DNA of 64,000 nucleotides from an uncultured Planctomycetaceae bacterium (GTDB lineage: Bacteria > Planctomycetota > Planctomycetia > Planctomycetales > Planctomycetaceae). The notes below the pieces were generated by a model. It did not search any database and had not been told where the DNA came from. It saw only the letters and a list, made by a program, of their open reading frames with translations. The position numbers and the translations under genes were made by a program. Shown here piece after piece: positions 19,316 through 28,630 of the stretch (the first letter of the stretch is position 1; each line of letters opens with the position of its first letter). Location: NCBI GenBank assembly GCA_903871805.1, contig CAIQIE010000263.1, positions 518 through 64,517 of the forward strand. The letters run 5' to 3'.

Positions 19316-20455
19316 GTGTTTTCGGGGTTCGGGGTGAGCGACGTGTCGAATCAACTGCTGGCCATCACCATCGGTGATGTTGCGGGAATTGGACCGGAAG
19401 TGATTGTGCGATCGCTCAGATCGCCGCAGTTTCCGCATGCAGCCGTACCAGTCCTGATTGGTCCGCCGGAAGTTTTTCAGCGTGCGGCCAAACTGGTCGG
19501 CTGTACCCTGAATCTCTGCCTGACCGAAGGGGCTGGACTGACGTCTGACGTTTTTCGCCAAACGGTACTGGAAAACTGGAAAACCGGAACAGTGACCGTC
19601 TGTAATCCGGCAGGGCCTGCTGCCATCACGGCTCCACTCTGCAAAGTCAGTGCGGCAGCTGGTGATGCAGCGTTTCGTTGTTTAAGTCTGGCCATTCAAA
19701 TGACCTCGGCCGGATCTACTGACGCGATTGTCACTGCACCCCTTAACAAGGAATCCCTGCACCTTGCCGGTCACCACTATCCCGGACATACAGAGATCCT
19801 TGCAGAGCAGTGTGGAGTCAAAGACTTTGCAATGATGCTGCACCTTCCCGAAACGGCACTCAGGCCACTGCGGCAACTGCTGCTGCGTTCACCGGCATCA
19901 CCTGGTCCGGAAACAGCCTCCGGCGGCCATGGTCTCAGTATCGCCCATGTAACCCTGCATACTTCGGTGGCGAGCGTTTCAGGATTACTGTCCGTCGAAT
20001 CGATCGAAGAAAAAGTTCATCTCATGGATGGTTTTCTCTGCCGGGCCGGCTGTGGTCGCCGATCCATCGCCGTCTGTGCTCTGAATCCCCATGGTGGTGA
20101 GCATGGATTGTTTGGAAATGAAGAGGCGGAGATCATCGAGCCCGCCGTGGCCAGGTGCCGTGGGTCAGTCCATGTTCATGGCCCACTGCCAGTCGACACG
20201 CTGATACGCCGAGCGGTTCTGGGAGAATTTGATGGTGTGGTAGCAATGTATCACGACCAGGGACACATTCCCGTCAAGCTGATCGGGTTTGATGCGGCCA
20301 TCAATATCACGCTGGGGCTCCCACTGATTCGGACAAGCCCTACTCACGGAACGGCATTTGACCGAGCGTGGAATGAATCTGCGCCTTCCAGTGAAGCCGG
20401 CATGCTGGAAGCAATTCGCATGGCGTATTCAATGGCACAGACCAGACACAACTAA
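19316..20455 (+). CDS. pdxA: 4-hydroxythreonine-4-phosphate dehydrogenase
   Basis: Contains ITIGDVAGIGPE, YPGHTEILAE, LNPHGGEHGLFGNEE and MYHDQGHIP, which are typical PdxA blocks. Confidence 0.88.
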   Translation: MFSGFGVSDVSNQLLAITIGDVAGIGPEVIVRSLRSPQFPHAAVPVLIGPPEVFQRAAKLVGCTLNLCLTEGAGLTSDVFRQTVLENWKTGTVTVCNPAGPAAITAPLCKVSAAAGDAAFRCLSLAIQMTSAGSTDAIVTAPLNKESLHLAGHHYPGHTEILAEQCGVKDFAMMLHLPETALRPLRQLLLRSPASPGPETASGGHGLSIAHVTLHTSVASVSGLLSVESIEEKVHLMDGFLCRAGCGRRSIAVCALNPHGGEHGLFGNEEAEIIEPAVARCRGSVHVHGPLPVDTLIRRAVLGEFDGVVAMYHDQGHIPVKLIGFDAAINITLGLPLIRTSPTHGTAFDRAWNESAPSSEAGMLEAIRMAYSMAQTRHN

Positions 20456-23400: not shown

Positions 23401-23687
23401 GAAATCTTCTGCCCATTCAGACTTAATAAACGATCCCCGGCCTTCGGCGCAGGATCCGTCAGCCCATCCTCAATGTCGATGTACTGCTGAATCTCAACCC
23501 CAGCACCCACCACCGTTGCTTCTGGCAACAAACAACGAATACCCGCATCCGGAAACGTCGCAACAAACCACAACACAACCACACAATAGGCTACCACCAT
23601 CCCCAAAAACGTAGCAACGAACCCCCGCTGGTCAGCCGTAGAAGTTAAAGATGTCCGTGTCCATAATTGCATGAAAGAAGAGTCCAA
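20499..23687 (-). CDS. Membrane-embedded sigma-54-dependent transcriptional activator (PDZ-like, polytopic TM, GAF and AAA+ domains plus a Fis-type HTH)
   Basis: The AAA+ core has GESGTGKELLARVIH (Walker A), the GAFTGA loop (HVKGAFTGA), GGTLFLDEIG (Walker B) and RLIAATNRNL. The C-terminal HTH reads AVAARNLNLPRSTFFSKCRKYGI. Upstream of the core are a GAF-like region, roughly 9 hydrophobic helices and an N-terminal PDZ-like block (PAPKAGDRLLSLNGQKISTFLDFVRAL). The ORF-track start at 23687 is TTG; the first ATG is at 23672. Confidence 0.9.
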   Translation of the reverse strand: MDSSFMQLWTRTSLTSTADQRGFVATFLGMVVAYCVVVLWFVATFPDAGIRCLLPEATVVGAGVEIQQYIDIEDGLTDPAPKAGDRLLSLNGQKISTFLDFVRALQGLRFAKIAPGGQLAPGSDPGELRVPPLVEIYSRDPSQPSERFVEVEYQHGDVDPGKPVLVQRAYLPVRPVRMMGIALTIVWFACQLTILGFAVTAYWYRPFDRVSHAFCLMCSASMGAFVPGFHWWMLPGSPLLNLPFILCAGILPALVLNFFLVFPKESDFVRNWRRGVGFAVYLPAGLMSLLIGLTYWTGWALNGNSASGPLTAIQKLSAVSQMIFQGSISLLAPTSAATTLLYVLRLLVQTAIGIASLYFGCTVFRLASSLLNSDTPRERRQVVTILSAALLATVPIGYTLYLAFFRTVDFALGRAQLPMFTASMLFMAAYSHGMLRDRLMLAEDVDDRSRRYIGMSVLVSAGFAIFLALGGMLAHSWSLPLNSSTTQQISLFLILVLAAGLSLWGRDRLQAVLDRRFFSEKYQLDRAMQQLNRSAAYLAEPSAMAEMTLKTCEDVISCSWAMMFVRDGQGTFRLIGSRSAPQSPSQLPAEMLQGTDTNSLVVLRQPSANRESMDAVQRLLHEWRAELLCRLEGEDGLHGVILLGRRQNGAIYTAEDFAFLQAMARMSVLALHSSRTNQTMTRLNAELKTKMESLSEQQRQLAALRAELKILQQEAGQNPVTQTDNQLDLDGVRGSSAALQKVLVQVRKVARSSSNVLIRGESGTGKELLARVIHRNSERASASLICVNCAALSPSLLESELFGHVKGAFTGAHADKPGRFQAANGGTLFLDEIGDVSLETQVKLLRVLQERRFEPVGSDTSVDVDVRLIAATNRNLEDLMAKGQFREDLFYRLNVVALTLPPLRERVEDLAELVFFFLSRAARKTRKQIRQIEPAALEVLESHRWPGNIRELENVIERAVVLADSDIVTLDDLPAEIRTGISAKPMVRSERVPESAVPVRSVARKLPGSVTASSIAAKSPAEEERILREALRLASGNKAVAARNLNLPRSTFFSKCRKYGIT

Positions 23688-23697
23688 AGAAAATCTG

Positions 23698-23782
23698 GGC
23701 GCCGATGTCGCTCCCGAAGATTACTCGACGGGCGCCGAAATTTCAACAGACTGAAGCTTTCGGCGCCGAAGAAACCGGCGCC
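23698..23782. promoter_or_regulatory. Cluster of four GGCGCC palindromic hexamers (three as GGCGCCGA) forming a candidate activator/operator site array
   Basis: GGCGCC occurs at 23698, 23731, 23762 and 23777, which is four copies in 85 bp. The array lies between the sigma-54 activator start and the -24/-12 promoter at 23875. Confidence 0.45.
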
Positions 23783-23874
23783 AAGCCCTGATTTTTTGAC
23801 GTTTTATCAGGGTTTGTCAGAAGTTTTGAACACGATTGGTGCCGTGTCTCCTCAAAAGCGAAAGTTTGCGTAAA

Positions 23875-23890
23875 TGGCACAGAATCTGCT
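23875..23890 (+). promoter_or_regulatory. Sigma-54 (-24/-12) promoter candidate P1
   Basis: TGGCACAGAATCTGCT compared with the consensus TGGCAC-N5-TTGCW. The GG and GC dinucleotides have the exact 12-nt offset. It is nearly identical in form to E. coli glnAp2 (TGGCACAGATTTCGCT). It is divergent from the sigma-54 activator gene. Confidence 0.6.
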
Positions 23891-23900
23891 AAAGTTTTAG

Positions 23901-24048
23901 AAACCCAGACGCCCTTCGGTGGATGAGGCCGGTGTTGAACAAAGAGATCACTCGCTGCCTTCGGTGACCCAGCCGCTGCAGCCTCCCCAGTTTCCTCAAA
24001 CGTTCAGTCCCCACACGGTACTCAGCCAATTTCACCGAAGGGCTTTTT
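23901..24048 (+). ncRNA. Candidate sigma-54-dependent small RNA (about 148 nt), not assignable to a known family
   Basis: The predicted +1 is about 12 nt after the -12 GC. An 11-bp perfect long-range helix, GCCCTTCGGTG (23911-23921) with CACCGAAGGGC (24033-24043), is followed directly by TTTTT (24044-24048). A second CCTTCGGTG copy at 23958-23966 offers an alternative pairing. There are two C-rich stretches (CCTCCCCAG, AGTCCCCAC). No convincing ORF is present. Confidence 0.35.
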
Positions 24049-24199
24049 CATGCGCGGTGCACCGCTGGGACCGAATTTCGGGAACTCAAGGTTCAACGTC
24101 GCAAAGCCCTGAACCGAATTTTTCTGCGAATACACGCACGGCCCCTGGTGCTCCAAACAAGCCGGTTGGCCCCTGATTTCACAAATCACCTCGCCTGAA

Positions 24200-24216
24200 C
24201 TGGCAGGGTCAGTGCC
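24200..24216 (+). promoter_or_regulatory. Second, weaker sigma-54-like -24/-12 element P2
   Basis: CTGGCAGGGTCAGTGCC has correct GG/GC spacing but three mismatches at less conserved positions. It lies about 460 bp upstream of the 24677 ORF. Confidence 0.3.
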
Positions 24217-24676
24217 CATCAGTCCCGAAAAACATTGGCACTTTATGCCGCCTTCCAGACATCAACGCTCCCAGCCGTTGAACAGTCCACAGTTGTTTCC
24301 TCTGAGAAGTCAGGAACCCAGTCACGGAACTGGGTTGGAAGAGCGAGTGATTCGGTTAACAATAGGAGTTGTTAAGTCGGGCACATGGTATTCGGGTCAC
24401 GGATGGACGCATTTTCGTCCCACCAGGGTGACTGGGTCGTGTGCGTGAAAGTTGGAAACATCCTCGCGGTTCTCAGGGCAAGTTCACTGCCGACGTTTGT
24501 CGCCAGTGTCGACGGTGCGTTAAAAATTGCCGTGCAGGCCGTGGATACAGCACAAGTTTCGCCCGGAAGTTGCCATGGTTGGTTTTCGATCGGGACGGGA
24601 TAATCCAACGAAGAAGAGGTGAACGTCAGGGGACGGATCGCTTCAGAAGGTACGAACTCTCAGGGAAAGCAAAACA

Positions 24677-25270
24677 ATGGGCGATATCAAGTGGACGGTC
24701 TGGGCATTCGTTAGCGGCGCTGCTCTGTCGTGGGGCATCTATGTTCCTCTGGTGCACGACGCTACCGCAAAGCTAGGCAGTAACCTGCGGGCATTTCTGA
24801 TGGTGGGTGTGGCCTACTTTCTGGTGGCCGTTCTGGTCCCCGGAATCTTTATCTTCCTGCTGAAAAGTGACCCGACAGCAAAGGACCTGTCCAAGCTGAA
24901 CTGGTCGGGGGGAAGCCTGGTTTCCGGCCTGCTCGCCGGTGTGTCTGGCGCTGTTGGTGCACTGTGCGTAATTTTTGCAACGCGAGATGCCGTCGCTTCG
25001 GTCGGGCCGATCGTTGGCCCGCTGCTTGTGGCACCGCTTGTTTTCGCAGGTGCACCGATTATCAACACGCTTGCGTCAATCACAATCTTCGCACACGGCA
25101 AAAAATTTGAAGCTCCCTCGCCAGTGTTTTATATCGGGCTGGCCCTGGCCGCAGCAGGTATGGTAACCGTGATGGTGAATAAGCCAAAAGAAGTGAAGGC
25201 AGCAAATGCAGCGTCCGCTGCAGCAGCCTCCCCTTCCGCAGTCAATAAGGCGGCTGTTCCCGAAAAGTAA
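24677..25270 (+). CDS. Small integral membrane protein (4-5 TM, DMT/EamA-like half-size?)
   Basis: 197 aa, strongly hydrophobic with Gly/Ala-rich helices, ending in a C-terminal Ala-rich tail. No diagnostic motif. Confidence 0.55.
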   Translation: MGDIKWTVWAFVSGAALSWGIYVPLVHDATAKLGSNLRAFLMVGVAYFLVAVLVPGIFIFLLKSDPTAKDLSKLNWSGGSLVSGLLAGVSGAVGALCVIFATRDAVASVGPIVGPLLVAPLVFAGAPIINTLASITIFAHGKKFEAPSPVFYIGLALAAAGMVTVMVNKPKEVKAANAASAAAASPSAVNKAAVPEK

Positions 25271-25495: not shown

Positions 25496-26920
25496 TCACG
25501 CAGCCTTCATGCTGGCAGAGGGGTGCTGAAGCAGTCGCTGAACAAGCCGTTCCAGCTTTAAGACCCGGGAGCCCTTGACACACAGAATGTCGCCTTCAGA
25601 AAGCAGGCATTCCAGAACCGGTTCAAGGCTGAACAGATCGCTGAAGGCGGAAACGCGATTCAAGGGCATTCCAGCTTTCAGAGCGGCGTCAGCACAGACT
25701 GCCGAGTGTTTTCCAACGAAAACAGCATGGTCAACGCTGGATTGGGCCAGCAACTGTGCAATTTCACGATGATACTGTTCTTCCTGGTTCCCAAGTTCCA
25801 GCATGTCTCCCAGCACAAAAATTCGCCTTTTGCCGGTCCAGTTGTTCATCTCCCGTATGCAGGCGCTCACGCTGGCCGGACTGGCATTGTAAGTTTCGTC
25901 AATCACCGTCCACGGTTCGCGAAGCACGATGCGGCCCCGACCGCGATCCGGCTGGAATGACTCAAGCCCACTGGAAATCTGGCCAGAGGTTAATCCGAGT
26001 ATCCGGCCAAGAGTGACAGCGGCAGCAGCGCTGGGCATCAGGTGGCGGCCACCGGTAAACTGAAAGCAGTCGCCAGCCATTCGAAAGGAACAGTGCCCGT
26101 TGACGCATTCTTCCGGAGTGAACTGGAGCGACGCTTCCAAATTTTCTCCGTAAAACACCACAGGAGCTACTGCGGCTGACGACATCTCTCGGACAAGGGC
26201 ATCATCGCCGTTCAGAATCACAAGGCCATGCTGCGGAATGCTGCTAACCAGTTCCTCCTTGGTTTGCTGAATCTTCTGCAGGTCCCCAAATGTCTGAAGA
26301 TGACATGGGGCCACTCGTGTCACCACGGCAATTTCCGGTTTTGCCAGTTCGCACAGAAATCGAATGTCGCCAGGTCTGCCCGCTCCCATTTCCAGTACCG
26401 CGATTTCGTCATCCTCTTTCAGCTGAAGAAGTGAGAGTGGAACCCCAAGTTCATTGTTGAAGTTTTTTGGACTCTGAATACTGCGAAAACCCTGTTTCAG
26501 AATCTGCTGGATCATCTGACGAGTTGTTGTTTTGCCAACGCTTCCCGTGATGCCGATTACAAGTGCTTCGGAATGCAGTCGATTCCAGTGAGAAAATGCC
26601 TGAAGTGCCTGAAGCGGATCCGGGACCAGAATCACCGGACAAACTCGGGCACCCGAACCTGAAAAAGGGGATGCAGGGGGCAGACTGAATTCCAGTGGCG
26701 GAGCAACATTTGTCACGATGCAGGCAGCCCCGGATGCGATGGCCTGTGCAACAAACTGAATGCCATGATGCGACTGGCCGGGAAGGGCAAAGAAGGCGTC
26801 TCCGGGCTGTATTAGCCTTGAATCAATGGAAACCCCTGTGATCGCTGTTTGCCCGTCACCGAAGCCCGTAAAGCGTCCATGCAGGATTTCTTGCAGTTGT
26901 GTGATATTGCAGGGAAACAT
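25496..26920 (-). CDS. murF: UDP-N-acetylmuramoyl-tripeptide--D-alanyl-D-alanine ligase
   Basis: Mur ligase P-loop ITGSVGKTTTRQMI, with central and C-terminal Mur ligase blocks (LEMGAGRPGDI, NASPASV). It lies downstream of murE. Confidence 0.9.
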   Translation of the reverse strand: MFPCNITQLQEILHGRFTGFGDGQTAITGVSIDSRLIQPGDAFFALPGQSHHGIQFVAQAIASGAACIVTNVAPPLEFSLPPASPFSGSGARVCPVILVPDPLQALQAFSHWNRLHSEALVIGITGSVGKTTTRQMIQQILKQGFRSIQSPKNFNNELGVPLSLLQLKEDDEIAVLEMGAGRPGDIRFLCELAKPEIAVVTRVAPCHLQTFGDLQKIQQTKEELVSSIPQHGLVILNGDDALVREMSSAAVAPVVFYGENLEASLQFTPEECVNGHCSFRMAGDCFQFTGGRHLMPSAAAAVTLGRILGLTSGQISSGLESFQPDRGRGRIVLREPWTVIDETYNASPASVSACIREMNNWTGKRRIFVLGDMLELGNQEEQYHREIAQLLAQSSVDHAVFVGKHSAVCADAALKAGMPLNRVSAFSDLFSLEPVLECLLSEGDILCVKGSRVLKLERLVQRLLQHPSASMKAA

Positions 26921-27163: not shown

Positions 27164-28630
27164 TCATCTGCTGAGTCCCGATTCTCGCAGTAGCCGCCTG
27201 GCAACTTTTCGGTCGTCAAAGGAAATCTGGCGAGTTCCGATGGTCTGCCGTGTTTCATGTCCCCGTCCTGCAATCAGTACGACGTCACCTGATTTGGCCA
27301 TTGAAAAGGCCATCCGGATAGCCTTTTCACGGTCCGTGATCTGATGCACATCCGCGGTGGCCGAAAAGCCACTGCAGATGTCCGCGATAATGGCCTGGGG
27401 GGCTTCGGAGCGGGGGTTATCGGATGTCACGATGACTGTATCTGCGGACTCTGCCGCCTGAGCCATCAGTGGTCGTTTGTGTCGATCGCGATCTCCGCCT
27501 GCACCGAAGACCAGAAGAATCCTGCCCATGGAAATTGCGCGGGCAGTGGCGATGGCATGCGTCAACCCATCGGAGGTATGAGCATAGTCCACCACCACCA
27601 CGAATGGCTGGCCTTCATTGATTTGTTCCATGCGGCCGGGGACGCGTTCCAGGGATTCCAGTCCCAGCCGAATGGTTTCGGCGTCAACCCCCAGTTGCTG
27701 AGCCATGCCGGCCGCGGTTAACAAATTCAGGGCATTGTGTCGTCCGATCATTCGGGAATGTACCAGGATCGCTGTTTCTCCAAGAGACATCTCGAGTGTC
27801 TGCCCTGCCGCGTCGGCGTGGGCTACGGAGACTTTCAAATCACTGTCGAGCGACATTCCGAACGTCCTGATCCGGACGTCCTTCAGAAACGTCAGTGCCT
27901 GGCGAACTCCGGGATCGTCAATTCCAACAAGTAACGAGACATCAGGGGCCAGCAATTCCGCAATTCGAACCTTGCACTGCAGGTATGAGTTAAAACCGCC
28001 GTGATAGTCGAAGTGATCCTGAGTAATATTGGTAAGGGCCGCTGCCGCCAGTTGGAAGGCTGAACATCGCTGCTGGTCCAGGGCGTGGCTGCTGATTTCC
28101 ATAACACAGTGACTGGCCTTCACGGAAACCATCTGGCGGAACAGCGCCGCAAGATCAACGGCATCCGGCGTGGTCATGCCCGACGGGTGCGTATGCTGAC
28201 CGTCACTGTACTCAATCGTGCCCACAAGTCCCGTCCGGAACCCAGCCTGCCGCAGTATGGCTCTCAGCATCCAGGTGACGGTGGTTTTGCCATTTGTCCC
28301 GGTAACTCCGGAGATCTGCAGATGCTTTGCCGGATTGCCCAGTCTGCGCATCGCGATCCATGCCCAGACCTGTCGGGTGTCTTTAACCACACACTGGGCA
28401 AGATTCAGATTCGAAAACGGGCGTTCCACAATCACAGCCGCCGCGCCAGATGCCACGACCTCATTTAGAAAATCATGTCCATCAACGGTGTTGCCTCGAA
28501 CAGCAACAAAGATATCACCACGCCGAACGGCGCGACTATCATTGCAGAAGCGTGTGCCGCGAAGATCACCGCAGCCAATAAAGCTGACCGGGCAGGGGCT
28601 GTCTCGTAAACTAATCGACTGGATATCCAT
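27164..28630 (-). CDS. murE: UDP-N-acetylmuramoyl-L-alanyl-D-glutamate--2,6-diaminopimelate ligase
   Basis: P-loop GVTGTNGKTTVTWML, the MEISSHAL block, and the DAP-specificity motif DNPR (VTSDNPRSE). Confidence 0.92.
   Translation of the reverse strand: MDIQSISLRDSPCPVSFIGCGDLRGTRFCNDSRAVRRGDIFVAVRGNTVDGHDFLNEVVASGAAAVIVERPFSNLNLAQCVVKDTRQVWAWIAMRRLGNPAKHLQISGVTGTNGKTTVTWMLRAILRQAGFRTGLVGTIEYSDGQHTHPSGMTTPDAVDLAALFRQMVSVKASHCVMEISSHALDQQRCSAFQLAAAALTNITQDHFDYHGGFNSYLQCKVRIAELLAPDVSLLVGIDDPGVRQALTFLKDVRIRTFGMSLDSDLKVSVAHADAAGQTLEMSLGETAILVHSRMIGRHNALNLLTAAGMAQQLGVDAETIRLGLESLERVPGRMEQINEGQPFVVVVDYAHTSDGLTHAIATARAISMGRILLVFGAGGDRDRHKRPLMAQAAESADTVIVTSDNPRSEAPQAIIADICSGFSATADVHQITDREKAIRMAFSMAKSGDVVLIAGRGHETRQTIGTRQISFDDRKVARRLLRESGLSR

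Follow-up and report, generated by a model that had tools for sequence, protein, structure and literature searches.

What does the intergenic DNA ahead of a sigma-54 activator gene encode in an uncultured member of the Planctomycetaceae? The question arises at positions 23,698 to 24,048 of a 64,000-nucleotide stretch of contig CAIQIE010000263.1 (hereafter the window), where a first-pass annotation had proposed a small RNA (sRNA) of about 150 nt, transcribed divergently from the activator gene under sigma-54 control. The elements behind that proposal were all present where it had placed them, namely the promoter, four GGCGCC hexamers, a closing helix followed by TTTTT, a second copy of CCTTCGGTG, and two C-rich stretches. 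Based on comparison across genomes, we conclude that the element is real and new, and that it is most plausibly a previously undescribed sRNA, conserved across the family Planctomycetaceae and predicted to depend on sigma-54 and on the neighboring activator.

Because the promoter and the hexamers were not significant when judged as a single sequence, the case for this locus rests on comparative data; the statistics obtained from the window alone were mixed, and conservation is the decisive evidence beyond chance. Orthologous loci (n = 79) were fetched from species-representative genomes with an alignment restricted to the sensor domain of the activator, since unrelated activators had to be kept out. 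An nhmmer search with window positions 23690–24060 matched 52 of these 79 loci, in all cases immediately upstream of and divergent from the activator. The resulting alignment consisted of four conserved blocks amid unconserved DNA: the palindromes, the promoter, an RNA-sized block, and a U-run followed by ATGCGC. A covariance model of the RNA (R1) reached farther, into the Fuerstiella clade as well, with a single copy per locus in 65 loci, and every R1 match in the loci was adjacent to and divergent from the activator. The conservation and covariation beside orthologous activators that the first-pass annotation had suggested looking for are thus found, by nhmmer in 52 loci and by R1 in 65. Within the window, R1 detected a single copy (131.8 bits, E = 8.5e-35) with the next match at only 13.9 bits, and no extra copies or paralogues were seen in the window (filters off) or in the 623 kb of loci. 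Overall, the divergent module of sites, promoter, and RNA was present in every orthologous locus with enough upstream sequence, which amounts to more than 70 planctomycete genomes. By contrast, the 620-nt gap that follows (24056–24676) resembled none of the 79 loci at the nucleotide level, 86%-identical relatives included, and is a useful neutral control for the conservation of the RNA.

The conserved block also carries the signature of a folded transcript. From the folds of individual homologues we derived a consensus of 36 base pairs. In the MAFFT alignment, 87.4% of cells were paired, vs. 31–45% when the 3′ partners were slid, and 22 of the 36 pairs had changed on both sides; the covariation score of 0.267 was reached by none of 500 shuffles (shuffled mean 0.153). 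The model-based alignment, which comprised 68 matches (one of them spurious, on the opposite strand), gave 89.4% paired cells vs. 32–45% when slid, double changes in 30 of the 36 pairs, and a score of 0.378 against a shuffled mean of 0.168, again with 0/500 shuffles reaching it. An alignment of this second kind leans towards the structure fitted, but the MAFFT result is free of model bias and agrees with it. Among pair cells, G-U combinations outnumbered A-C by ~3:1 (194 vs. 65), which indicates that the transcribed strand is the promoter strand. The window sequence itself folds on the plus strand at −54.9 kcal/mol (z = −4.27, 0/200 shuffles), whereas the minus strand has z = −0.51. Compensatory pairs in excess of both controls point to a structured non-coding RNA, and the terminator-closed transcript of the first proposal is well supported by this covariation together with the conserved U-run.

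The individual folds of all 52 aligned homologues have a nested rod in common (Table 1). Read from 5′ to 3′, the consensus has a ~12-nt tail, then P1, then P2 (variable, always complementary), and then the invariant GUG/CAC and UGAAC/GUUCA pairs, which flank the GUCCCC loop on the 3′ side; the UCCCCAG loop and P3 lie beyond. P1, in which GCCCTTCGGTG (23911–23921) is complementary to CACCGAAGGGC (24033–24043) and is followed by TTTTT (24044–24048), was paired in 94% of cells, with compensatory changes in 7 of 10 pairs (e.g., CG to UA in 27 sequences). Helices 2–4, making up P2, were 81–92% paired with 16/18 pairs compensatory, and helices 5–6, making up P3, were 82–91% paired with 7/8 compensatory. 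Homologous RNAs measure 130–150 nt and end in the closing helix and U-run, so that a conserved GC-rich stem of 11–13 bp followed by UUUUU forms what looks like a terminator. One earlier suggestion did not survive the comparison: the second CCTTCGGTG copy (23958–23966) had been thought to allow alternative folds, but it is unconserved beyond the closest relatives, as is its pairing, and the segment proved to be the inner stem of the conserved P3 hairpin.

Four C-rich motifs are predicted to stay unpaired in this rod. All are invariant or nearly so, which makes them candidate seeds and likely functional sites. In the core clade and in Fuerstiella, motif 1 reads (U/A)(A/C)CCCAG(CC); a more distant clade has ACCCCAACC or ACCCAGC, and the motif was single-stranded in 52/52 individual folds. 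The ACCCA core of the P3 loop (motif 2) is invariant in every clade, Planctomicrobium included, and the 5′-terminal ACCCAG(CC), repeated in this apical loop, looks like a duplicated seed. In motif 3, CCCCA is at least 85–95% conserved and stays unpaired both in the consensus and when homologues are folded one by one; the core alignment shows no variation in the UCCCC of motif 4. The first-pass annotation had picked out the C-rich stretches CCUCCCC (23982–23988) and GUCCCCAC (24007–24014) as possible anti-Shine-Dalgarno seeds. Both are indeed present, but it had overlooked the two unpaired motifs with the strongest conservation, the 5′-end ACCCAG and the GACCCAG of the apical loop.

Table 1. 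Positions of the genes, predicted control sites, and RNA elements at the locus, in window coordinates.
Feature	Position	Strand	Remarks
Sigma-54 activator gene, 1057 aa	20499..23672	-	divergent from the sRNA gene
Palindrome site 1, GGGCGCCGAT	23697..23706	.	centre ~−199 from predicted +1; 25 bp upstream of activator ATG
Palindrome site 2, GGGCGCCGAA	23730..23739	.	centre ~−166; conserved alignment block
Palindrome site 3, TCGGCGCCGA	23760..23769	.	centre ~−136; perfect 10-nt palindrome
Palindrome site 4, CGGCGCCAA	23776..23784	.	centre ~−121; partial, weaker than sites 1–3
Predicted sigma-54 promoter TGGCACAGAATCTGCT	23875..23890	+	TGGCAC-N5-CTGCT; GG at −24, GC at −12
Predicted sRNA, ~148 nt	23901..24048	+	5′ end from promoter geometry and onset of conservation; 3′ end in U-run
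Unpaired motif 1, ACCCAG	23903..23908	+	extreme 5′ end; candidate seed
P1, 5′ strand	23911..23923	+	pairs with 24031–24043
P2, 5′ strand	23925..23940	+	variable covarying part, then invariant GUGUUGAAC; pairs with 24002–24025 across the GUCCCC loop
P3, apical hairpin GCUGC...GCAGC	23954..23982	+	loop is unpaired motif 2, GACCCAG (23966–23972)
Unpaired motif 3, UCCCCAG	23984..23990	+	3′-side internal loop after P3
Unpaired motif 4, GUCCCC	24007..24012	+	asymmetric internal loop between GUUC and CAC strands
P1, 3′ strand UUCACCGAAGGGC, and UUUUU	24031..24048	+	terminator-like end; U-run kept in essentially all homologues
Next gene, 197-aa membrane protein	24677–25270	+	628 nt beyond the RNA; no Pfam/NCBIfam match

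The sequence in front of the RNA has the GG at −24, the GC at −12, and the spacing expected of a sigma-54 promoter. It departs at one position from the consensus TGGCAC-N5-TTGCW and has the exact 10-nt GG/GC separation. Across genomes, the divergent promoter that had been proposed was clearly upheld: 67 of the 72 loci strictly kept TGGCAY-N6-TGCW, with an unchanging distance to the RNA, and the other five were near-consensus. The −24/−12 elements are invariant while the spacer between them is entirely variable, and this promoter family does not keep the consensus T at −15. Conservation of the RNA (ACCCAG) sets in 14 nt past the −12 C, consistent with a sigma-54 start, which is expected 11–13 nt downstream of −12.

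Farther upstream lie the GGCGCC hexamers (23698, 23731, 23762, and 23777), three of them in the form GGCGCCGA. Orthologous loci contain two to four palindromes of the TCGGCGCCGA type each. The column block at site 1 is TCGGCGCYGA across the 52 aligned loci; site 3 is the best-kept of the array, with TTCGGCGCCGA in almost every locus, and at site 4 GCGCCA is kept only in a subset. Density of the motif was 12.4 per kb in the enhancer region vs. 0.44 per kb in the rest of the loci (~28-fold), and the enriched palindromes lie approximately −85 to −295 from +1, with a modal site-to-site distance of 31–35 bp, or ~3 helical turns. Clusters of at least three sites occurred at the array position in 63 loci vs. 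2 elsewhere in 623 kb, and this array is the sole such cluster in the window. There, GGCGCCGA is in no overall excess (5 observed vs. 3.6 expected), but four of the five copies fall within 72 bp of one another here. Repeated, dyad-symmetric, conserved sites ~80–200 bp upstream are what would be expected of an enhancer, or upstream activating sequence, and we regard them as the predicted activator sites; the earlier claim of a GGCGCC enhancer array gains from their conservation, enrichment, and spacing alike.

Some further features of the flanking DNA were recorded. An inverted repeat, CCCTGAT-N13-ATCAGGG (23789–23815), lies in a T-rich stretch between the array and the promoter and is unconserved elsewhere. 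A T-rich spacer is common among the loci, however, and could provide bending or a site resembling that of integration host factor, as at glmY. Right after the U-run, ATGCGC (24050..24055) recurs as (A/T/C)(T/C)GCGC in 62/66 homologues. This motif starts no conserved open reading frame (ORF) and often extends to GCGCYGA, resembling half of the TCGGCGCYGA palindrome, so it could be a downstream half-site for the activator.

The divergent gene encodes the cognate enhancer-binding protein that a sigma-54 promoter calls for. A Pfam search of the protein returned Sigma54_activat (E = 1.3e-70), AAA_lid_14, and HTH_8, and the translation contains intact GAFTGA and Walker A motifs. According to Pfam, hydropathy, and AlphaFold2, the predicted order from N to C terminus starts with a transmembrane helix, a ~125-aa beta-rich extracytoplasmic domain, about eight further transmembrane helices (at least seven), a weak GAF match, and a coiled coil; the AAA+ sigma-54 interaction domain, which carries GAFTGA, and a Fis-type helix-turn-helix (HTH) follow. 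Residues 1–700 appear to be the sensor part, in which Pfam and NCBIfam gave weak domain matches only, to PDZ_6 in the extracytoplasmic domain and to GAF_3. No receiver domain was detected in the activator by Pfam search and hydropathy, and no NCBIfam equivalog matched it above cut-off. The AlphaFold2 model, which covers residues 1–560, is of moderate quality (pLDDT 66.7), and its Foldseek comparison with the PDB gave a weak likeness to seven-transmembrane (G protein-coupled receptor) bundles at template modeling scores ≤0.5, which was uninformative and not used. An enhancer-binding protein with a PDZ-like extracytoplasmic domain, at least eight transmembrane helices, and no receiver would be an unusual sensor architecture. 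Approximately 100 full-length orthologues were found in Planctomycetaceae.

Taken as a whole, we favor a chain in which sigma-54 and the activator drive a structured sRNA that acts by base-pairing in trans, and we put its probability at about 0.62. As its domain layout suggests, the activator would sense an envelope or extracytoplasmic signal through the PDZ-like domain and the polytopic membrane module. Its Fis-type HTH would bind the three or four TCGGCGCCGA palindromes at approximately −120 to −200, a step to which conservation and enrichment both point. Autoregulation of the activator is also likely, because the activator must itself be transcribed from a promoter in the same interval that contains the array, between its ATG and the sRNA promoter. 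The AAA+ ring, acting via the GAFTGA loop, would open the sigma-54 closed complex at TGGCAC-N5-CTGCT, with transcription starting near 23901. This would be the sole promoter of the sRNA, switched on by the divergent, membrane-integrated activator. The ~148-nt transcript would then zip from P3 through P2 to P1, a structure backed by covariation, and the GC-rich P1 ahead of the U-run would presumably end transcription. Finally, the most likely role of the C-rich motifs would be pairing in trans with G-rich segments of target mRNAs, such as CUGGGU and CUGGGGA. The middle of this chain, from activator binding at the palindromes through sigma-54 opening to a terminated, structured non-coding RNA, is in our view very probable taken by itself.

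Several points weigh against the full chain. Both ends of the transcript, as well as its reliance on sigma-54 and on the activator, are predictions. In the window alone, the promoter is not better than chance, with 1 match to TGGCAYN6TGCW vs. 0.95 expected and, for TGGCACN5TTGCW with one mismatch, 2 matches vs. 3.4 expected; the claim that it exceeds chance holds only through its conservation across genomes. The rpoN gene does not lie within the 64-kb window, and we assume that the genome carries it elsewhere. At the other end of the transcript, P1 closes a ~110-nt rod rather than a compact short loop, and a simple terminator scan made no call there, although P1 and the U-run may still terminate since the rod zips outward co-transcriptionally. 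As for targets, RNAduplex comparison of the four motifs with 69 translation-initiation regions did no better than shuffled sequence, and the 8-mer complement GGCTGGGT was not enriched, both within a 64-kb window that gives little power. Lastly, in 11 loci (L020–L024, L026–L029, L031, and L065), the RNA is succeeded on its own strand by the gene for a sensor histidine kinase of ~600 aa, mostly after 7–72 nt and in one case at ~1.1 kb, and read-through into it is a possibility in that clade only.

It is the mode of action that has a serious rival. With the same gene and the same control, the RNA could be a protein decoy or sponge whose (C)CCCAG and UCCCC motifs titrate an RNA-binding protein, in the manner of GlmY, CrcZ, and CsrB/RsmZ. 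The same short motif is invariant in three unpaired contexts (5′ tail, apical loop, and internal loop), which is typical of multi-site protein-binding RNAs; GlmY and CrcZ, both well-known sigma-54-dependent sRNAs, sequester protein; and the signal of complementary targets was not found in the 64-kb window. Yet that window is far too small for a meaningful negative target search, and a conserved single-stranded motif at the 5′ terminus is the classic position of a base-pairing seed too. Moreover, the motifs number only three or four, and the variable neighbors of the locus include no candidate for a C-rich-binding protein. We therefore favor base-pairing and consider the sponge mode, though serious, unlikely.

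Far more doubtful is a reading of the RNA as a cis-acting 5′ leader or attenuator for a sigma-54 operon, with P1 and the U-run serving as a conditional terminator that governs passage into the next gene. The same-strand histidine-kinase genes would fit such a leader, as would a DUF1501-like gene ~87 nt past the RNA in five loci and the 197-aa membrane-protein gene that lies on the same strand in the window and is the downstream gene of its clade. However, the downstream gene comes from at least four unrelated families and is not conserved across clades, being convergent in the Fuerstiella clade including strain NH11, where read-through would have no gene to enter. In the window, the DNA between the RNA and the next gene is wholly unconserved, and there is neither a conserved anti-terminator pairing nor conservation of the second CCTTCGGTG copy. 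We find it hardly credible, in turn, that conservation acts on the DNA alone (e.g., as an extended operator for the activator) or reflects a small protein. The region does adjoin the activator gene and contain palindromes, and in one locus (L202) a gene caller placed ORFs of 65 and 72 aa in the gap between the activator and the 197-aa gene, which look spurious. But the compensatory changes in 30/36 pairs and the 3:1 excess of G-U over A-C speak for selection on a plus-strand, single-stranded RNA, and the sigma-54 promoter and U-run bracket the conserved block precisely. Conserved anchors occur in all three frames relative to one another, the indels separating them do not come in multiples of three, and an ATG-initiated ORF is missing from most homologues, in line with the earlier view that nothing here is coding.

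Returning to the sRNA that we favor, it does not appear to belong to any described family. The whole window had no match in Rfam 15 at the gathering threshold, as the first-pass annotation had anticipated in recognizing no known RNA. At E ≤ 10 over 23500–24800, just two sub-threshold matches at chance level emerged: narK (23876–23915, plus strand, 16 bits vs. a gathering threshold of 43) and nhaA-II (23695–23786, minus strand, 18 bits vs. 70). The former is confined to the promoter-like sequence, and the consensus of narK has a 5′ end that itself reads like a −24/−12 promoter; the latter overlaps the GGCGCC palindromes. Chance or promoter mimicry probably accounts for both. The Qrr (RF00378), GlmY/GlmZ, CrcZ, and RsaE families were also considered and had no match in either search. 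In the literature we found no planctomycete sigma-54-dependent sRNA, and neither Rfam 15 nor the full-text literature yielded a characterized sRNA for Planctomycetota.

Comparison with known systems places the locus in familiar regulatory territory. In Vibrio, luxO and qrr1 are divergent, the sRNA is made from a sigma-54 promoter, and the Qrr1–5 RNAs are the main output of the activator and carry a conserved single-stranded seed. Our locus resembles this pair in having an sRNA divergent from the activator, a sigma-54 promoter, and a conserved single-stranded segment. However, Qrr RNAs are ~100 nt, consist of four separate stem-loops, and depend on Hfq, whereas the RNA here is a single nested rod with no Rfam Qrr match. 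LuxO is a response regulator, unlike our membrane activator, and there are multiple Qrr RNAs but one copy per locus here, without paralogues in the window or the 623 kb of loci. CrcZ and CrcY, controlled by CbrB in Pseudomonas, are likewise dependent on sigma-54 and an activator and contain several copies of a short unpaired motif. CrcZ is ~400 nt, however, and its A-rich motifs sequester Hfq/Crc, while the motifs here are C-rich (CCCAG/UCCCC) and no Rfam match links the two. In the RsaE/RoxS group of the Firmicutes, C-rich motifs pair with G-rich Shine-Dalgarno regions.

RsaE/RoxS belong to the “UCCC-motif” sRNAs (PMC6158497, PMC5419742, PMC8216469). The display of several conserved, unpaired C-rich motifs in loops is shared with our RNA. 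Still, there is no homology, control is by sigma-A with ResD/Rex/SrrA rather than sigma-54, and both the architecture and the phylum differ. Another close system is GlmY/GlmZ with GlrR/QseF in Enterobacteriaceae. The sigma-54 promoter of glmY needs an activator bound at three conserved upstream sites (PMC3045617), and within the RapZ pathway GlmY is described as an sRNA mimic (PMC4152352). Both systems combine a sigma-54 promoter with upstream activator sites and place the sRNA beside the regulator locus, and GlmY, too, is ~150 nt with a terminator at its end. By contrast, there is no sequence or structure homology, and Rfam yields no match up to E ≤ 10. A kinase feeds GlrR, a cytoplasmic response regulator; the activator here is instead a polytopic membrane protein without a receiver. 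The GlrR sites differ in sequence from the TCGGCGCCGA palindrome, and the phylum is Planctomycetota. GlmY is a decoy for RapZ, while for our sRNA base-pairing is the favored reading, with the sponge mode as its rival. The parallels drawn earlier with luxO-qrr1 and glrR-glmY are sound, then, at the level of control: the regulatory logic is that of GlmY/GlrR, Qrr/LuxO, and CrcZ/CbrB, but the RNA family itself is new. Moreover, a polytopic membrane activator that lacks a receiver domain sets this locus apart from those controlled by GlrR, LuxO, and CbrB.

Carriers of the module include Fuerstiella, Planctomicrobium, and many metagenome-assembled genomes from freshwater, marine, and soil environments. 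The cultured type strain Fuerstiella marisgermanici NH11 has an R1 match of 68 bits, which the coordinates of its locus (L203) place at approximately 4,591,893–4,592,032 of CP017641.1, minus strand, and the RNA module is also present in the cultured Planctomicrobium sp. SH527 and SH661. Some loci without an R1 match had no upstream sequence, while others (L069 and L071–L079, including two complete Planctomicrobium genomes) have a diverged RNA and a sensor domain only 32–40% identical. These distant loci keep the activator sites, TGGCAC-N6-TGCA, the 5′ ACCCAGC/ACCCCAACC tail, and the closing helix with its U-run; their apical hairpin is GCAGCC(Y)GACCCAC(W)CUGC. We also scanned metagenomes with a DNA pattern that starts from the RNA rather than from the activator. 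Among the at least 80 matches listed, 6 were true by R1 and the rest mostly chance, so the pattern is too permissive; all 6 of the confirmed copies adjoin an activator homologue and are divergent from it.

The wider neighborhood was also noted. Past the 3′ end of the activator gene lies a PdxA gene (19316–20455, plus strand). Downstream of the locus are two Mur-ligase family genes (25496–26920 and 27164–28630, both on the minus strand), which places peptidoglycan synthesis close to an envelope-type sensor.

This would be the first well-supported sRNA of its kind in Planctomycetota, a phylum rich in sigma-54 activators but with hardly any sRNAs described. The locus supplies a full set of predictions, from the sensor and its DNA site through the promoter to the RNA structure and the candidate functional motifs, for a module that spans a bacterial family. 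Because the RNA is present in cultured F. marisgermanici NH11 and Planctomicrobium sp. SH527 and SH661, these predictions are directly testable. The covariance model R1 can seed a new RNA family and avert spurious small-ORF calls such as those in L202. More speculatively, the locus may be a one-component transmembrane module, in which a membrane-anchored DNA-binding activator without kinase or receiver has the sRNA as its single dedicated output and CCCAG/UCCCC constitutes a new recognition code. We consider this reading unlikely. If true, the code would operate between RNA and protein or between RNA and RNA in Planctomycetota, for example by titrating a C-rich-binding protein, and the module would represent a new architecture for carrying signals from the envelope to post-transcriptional control.

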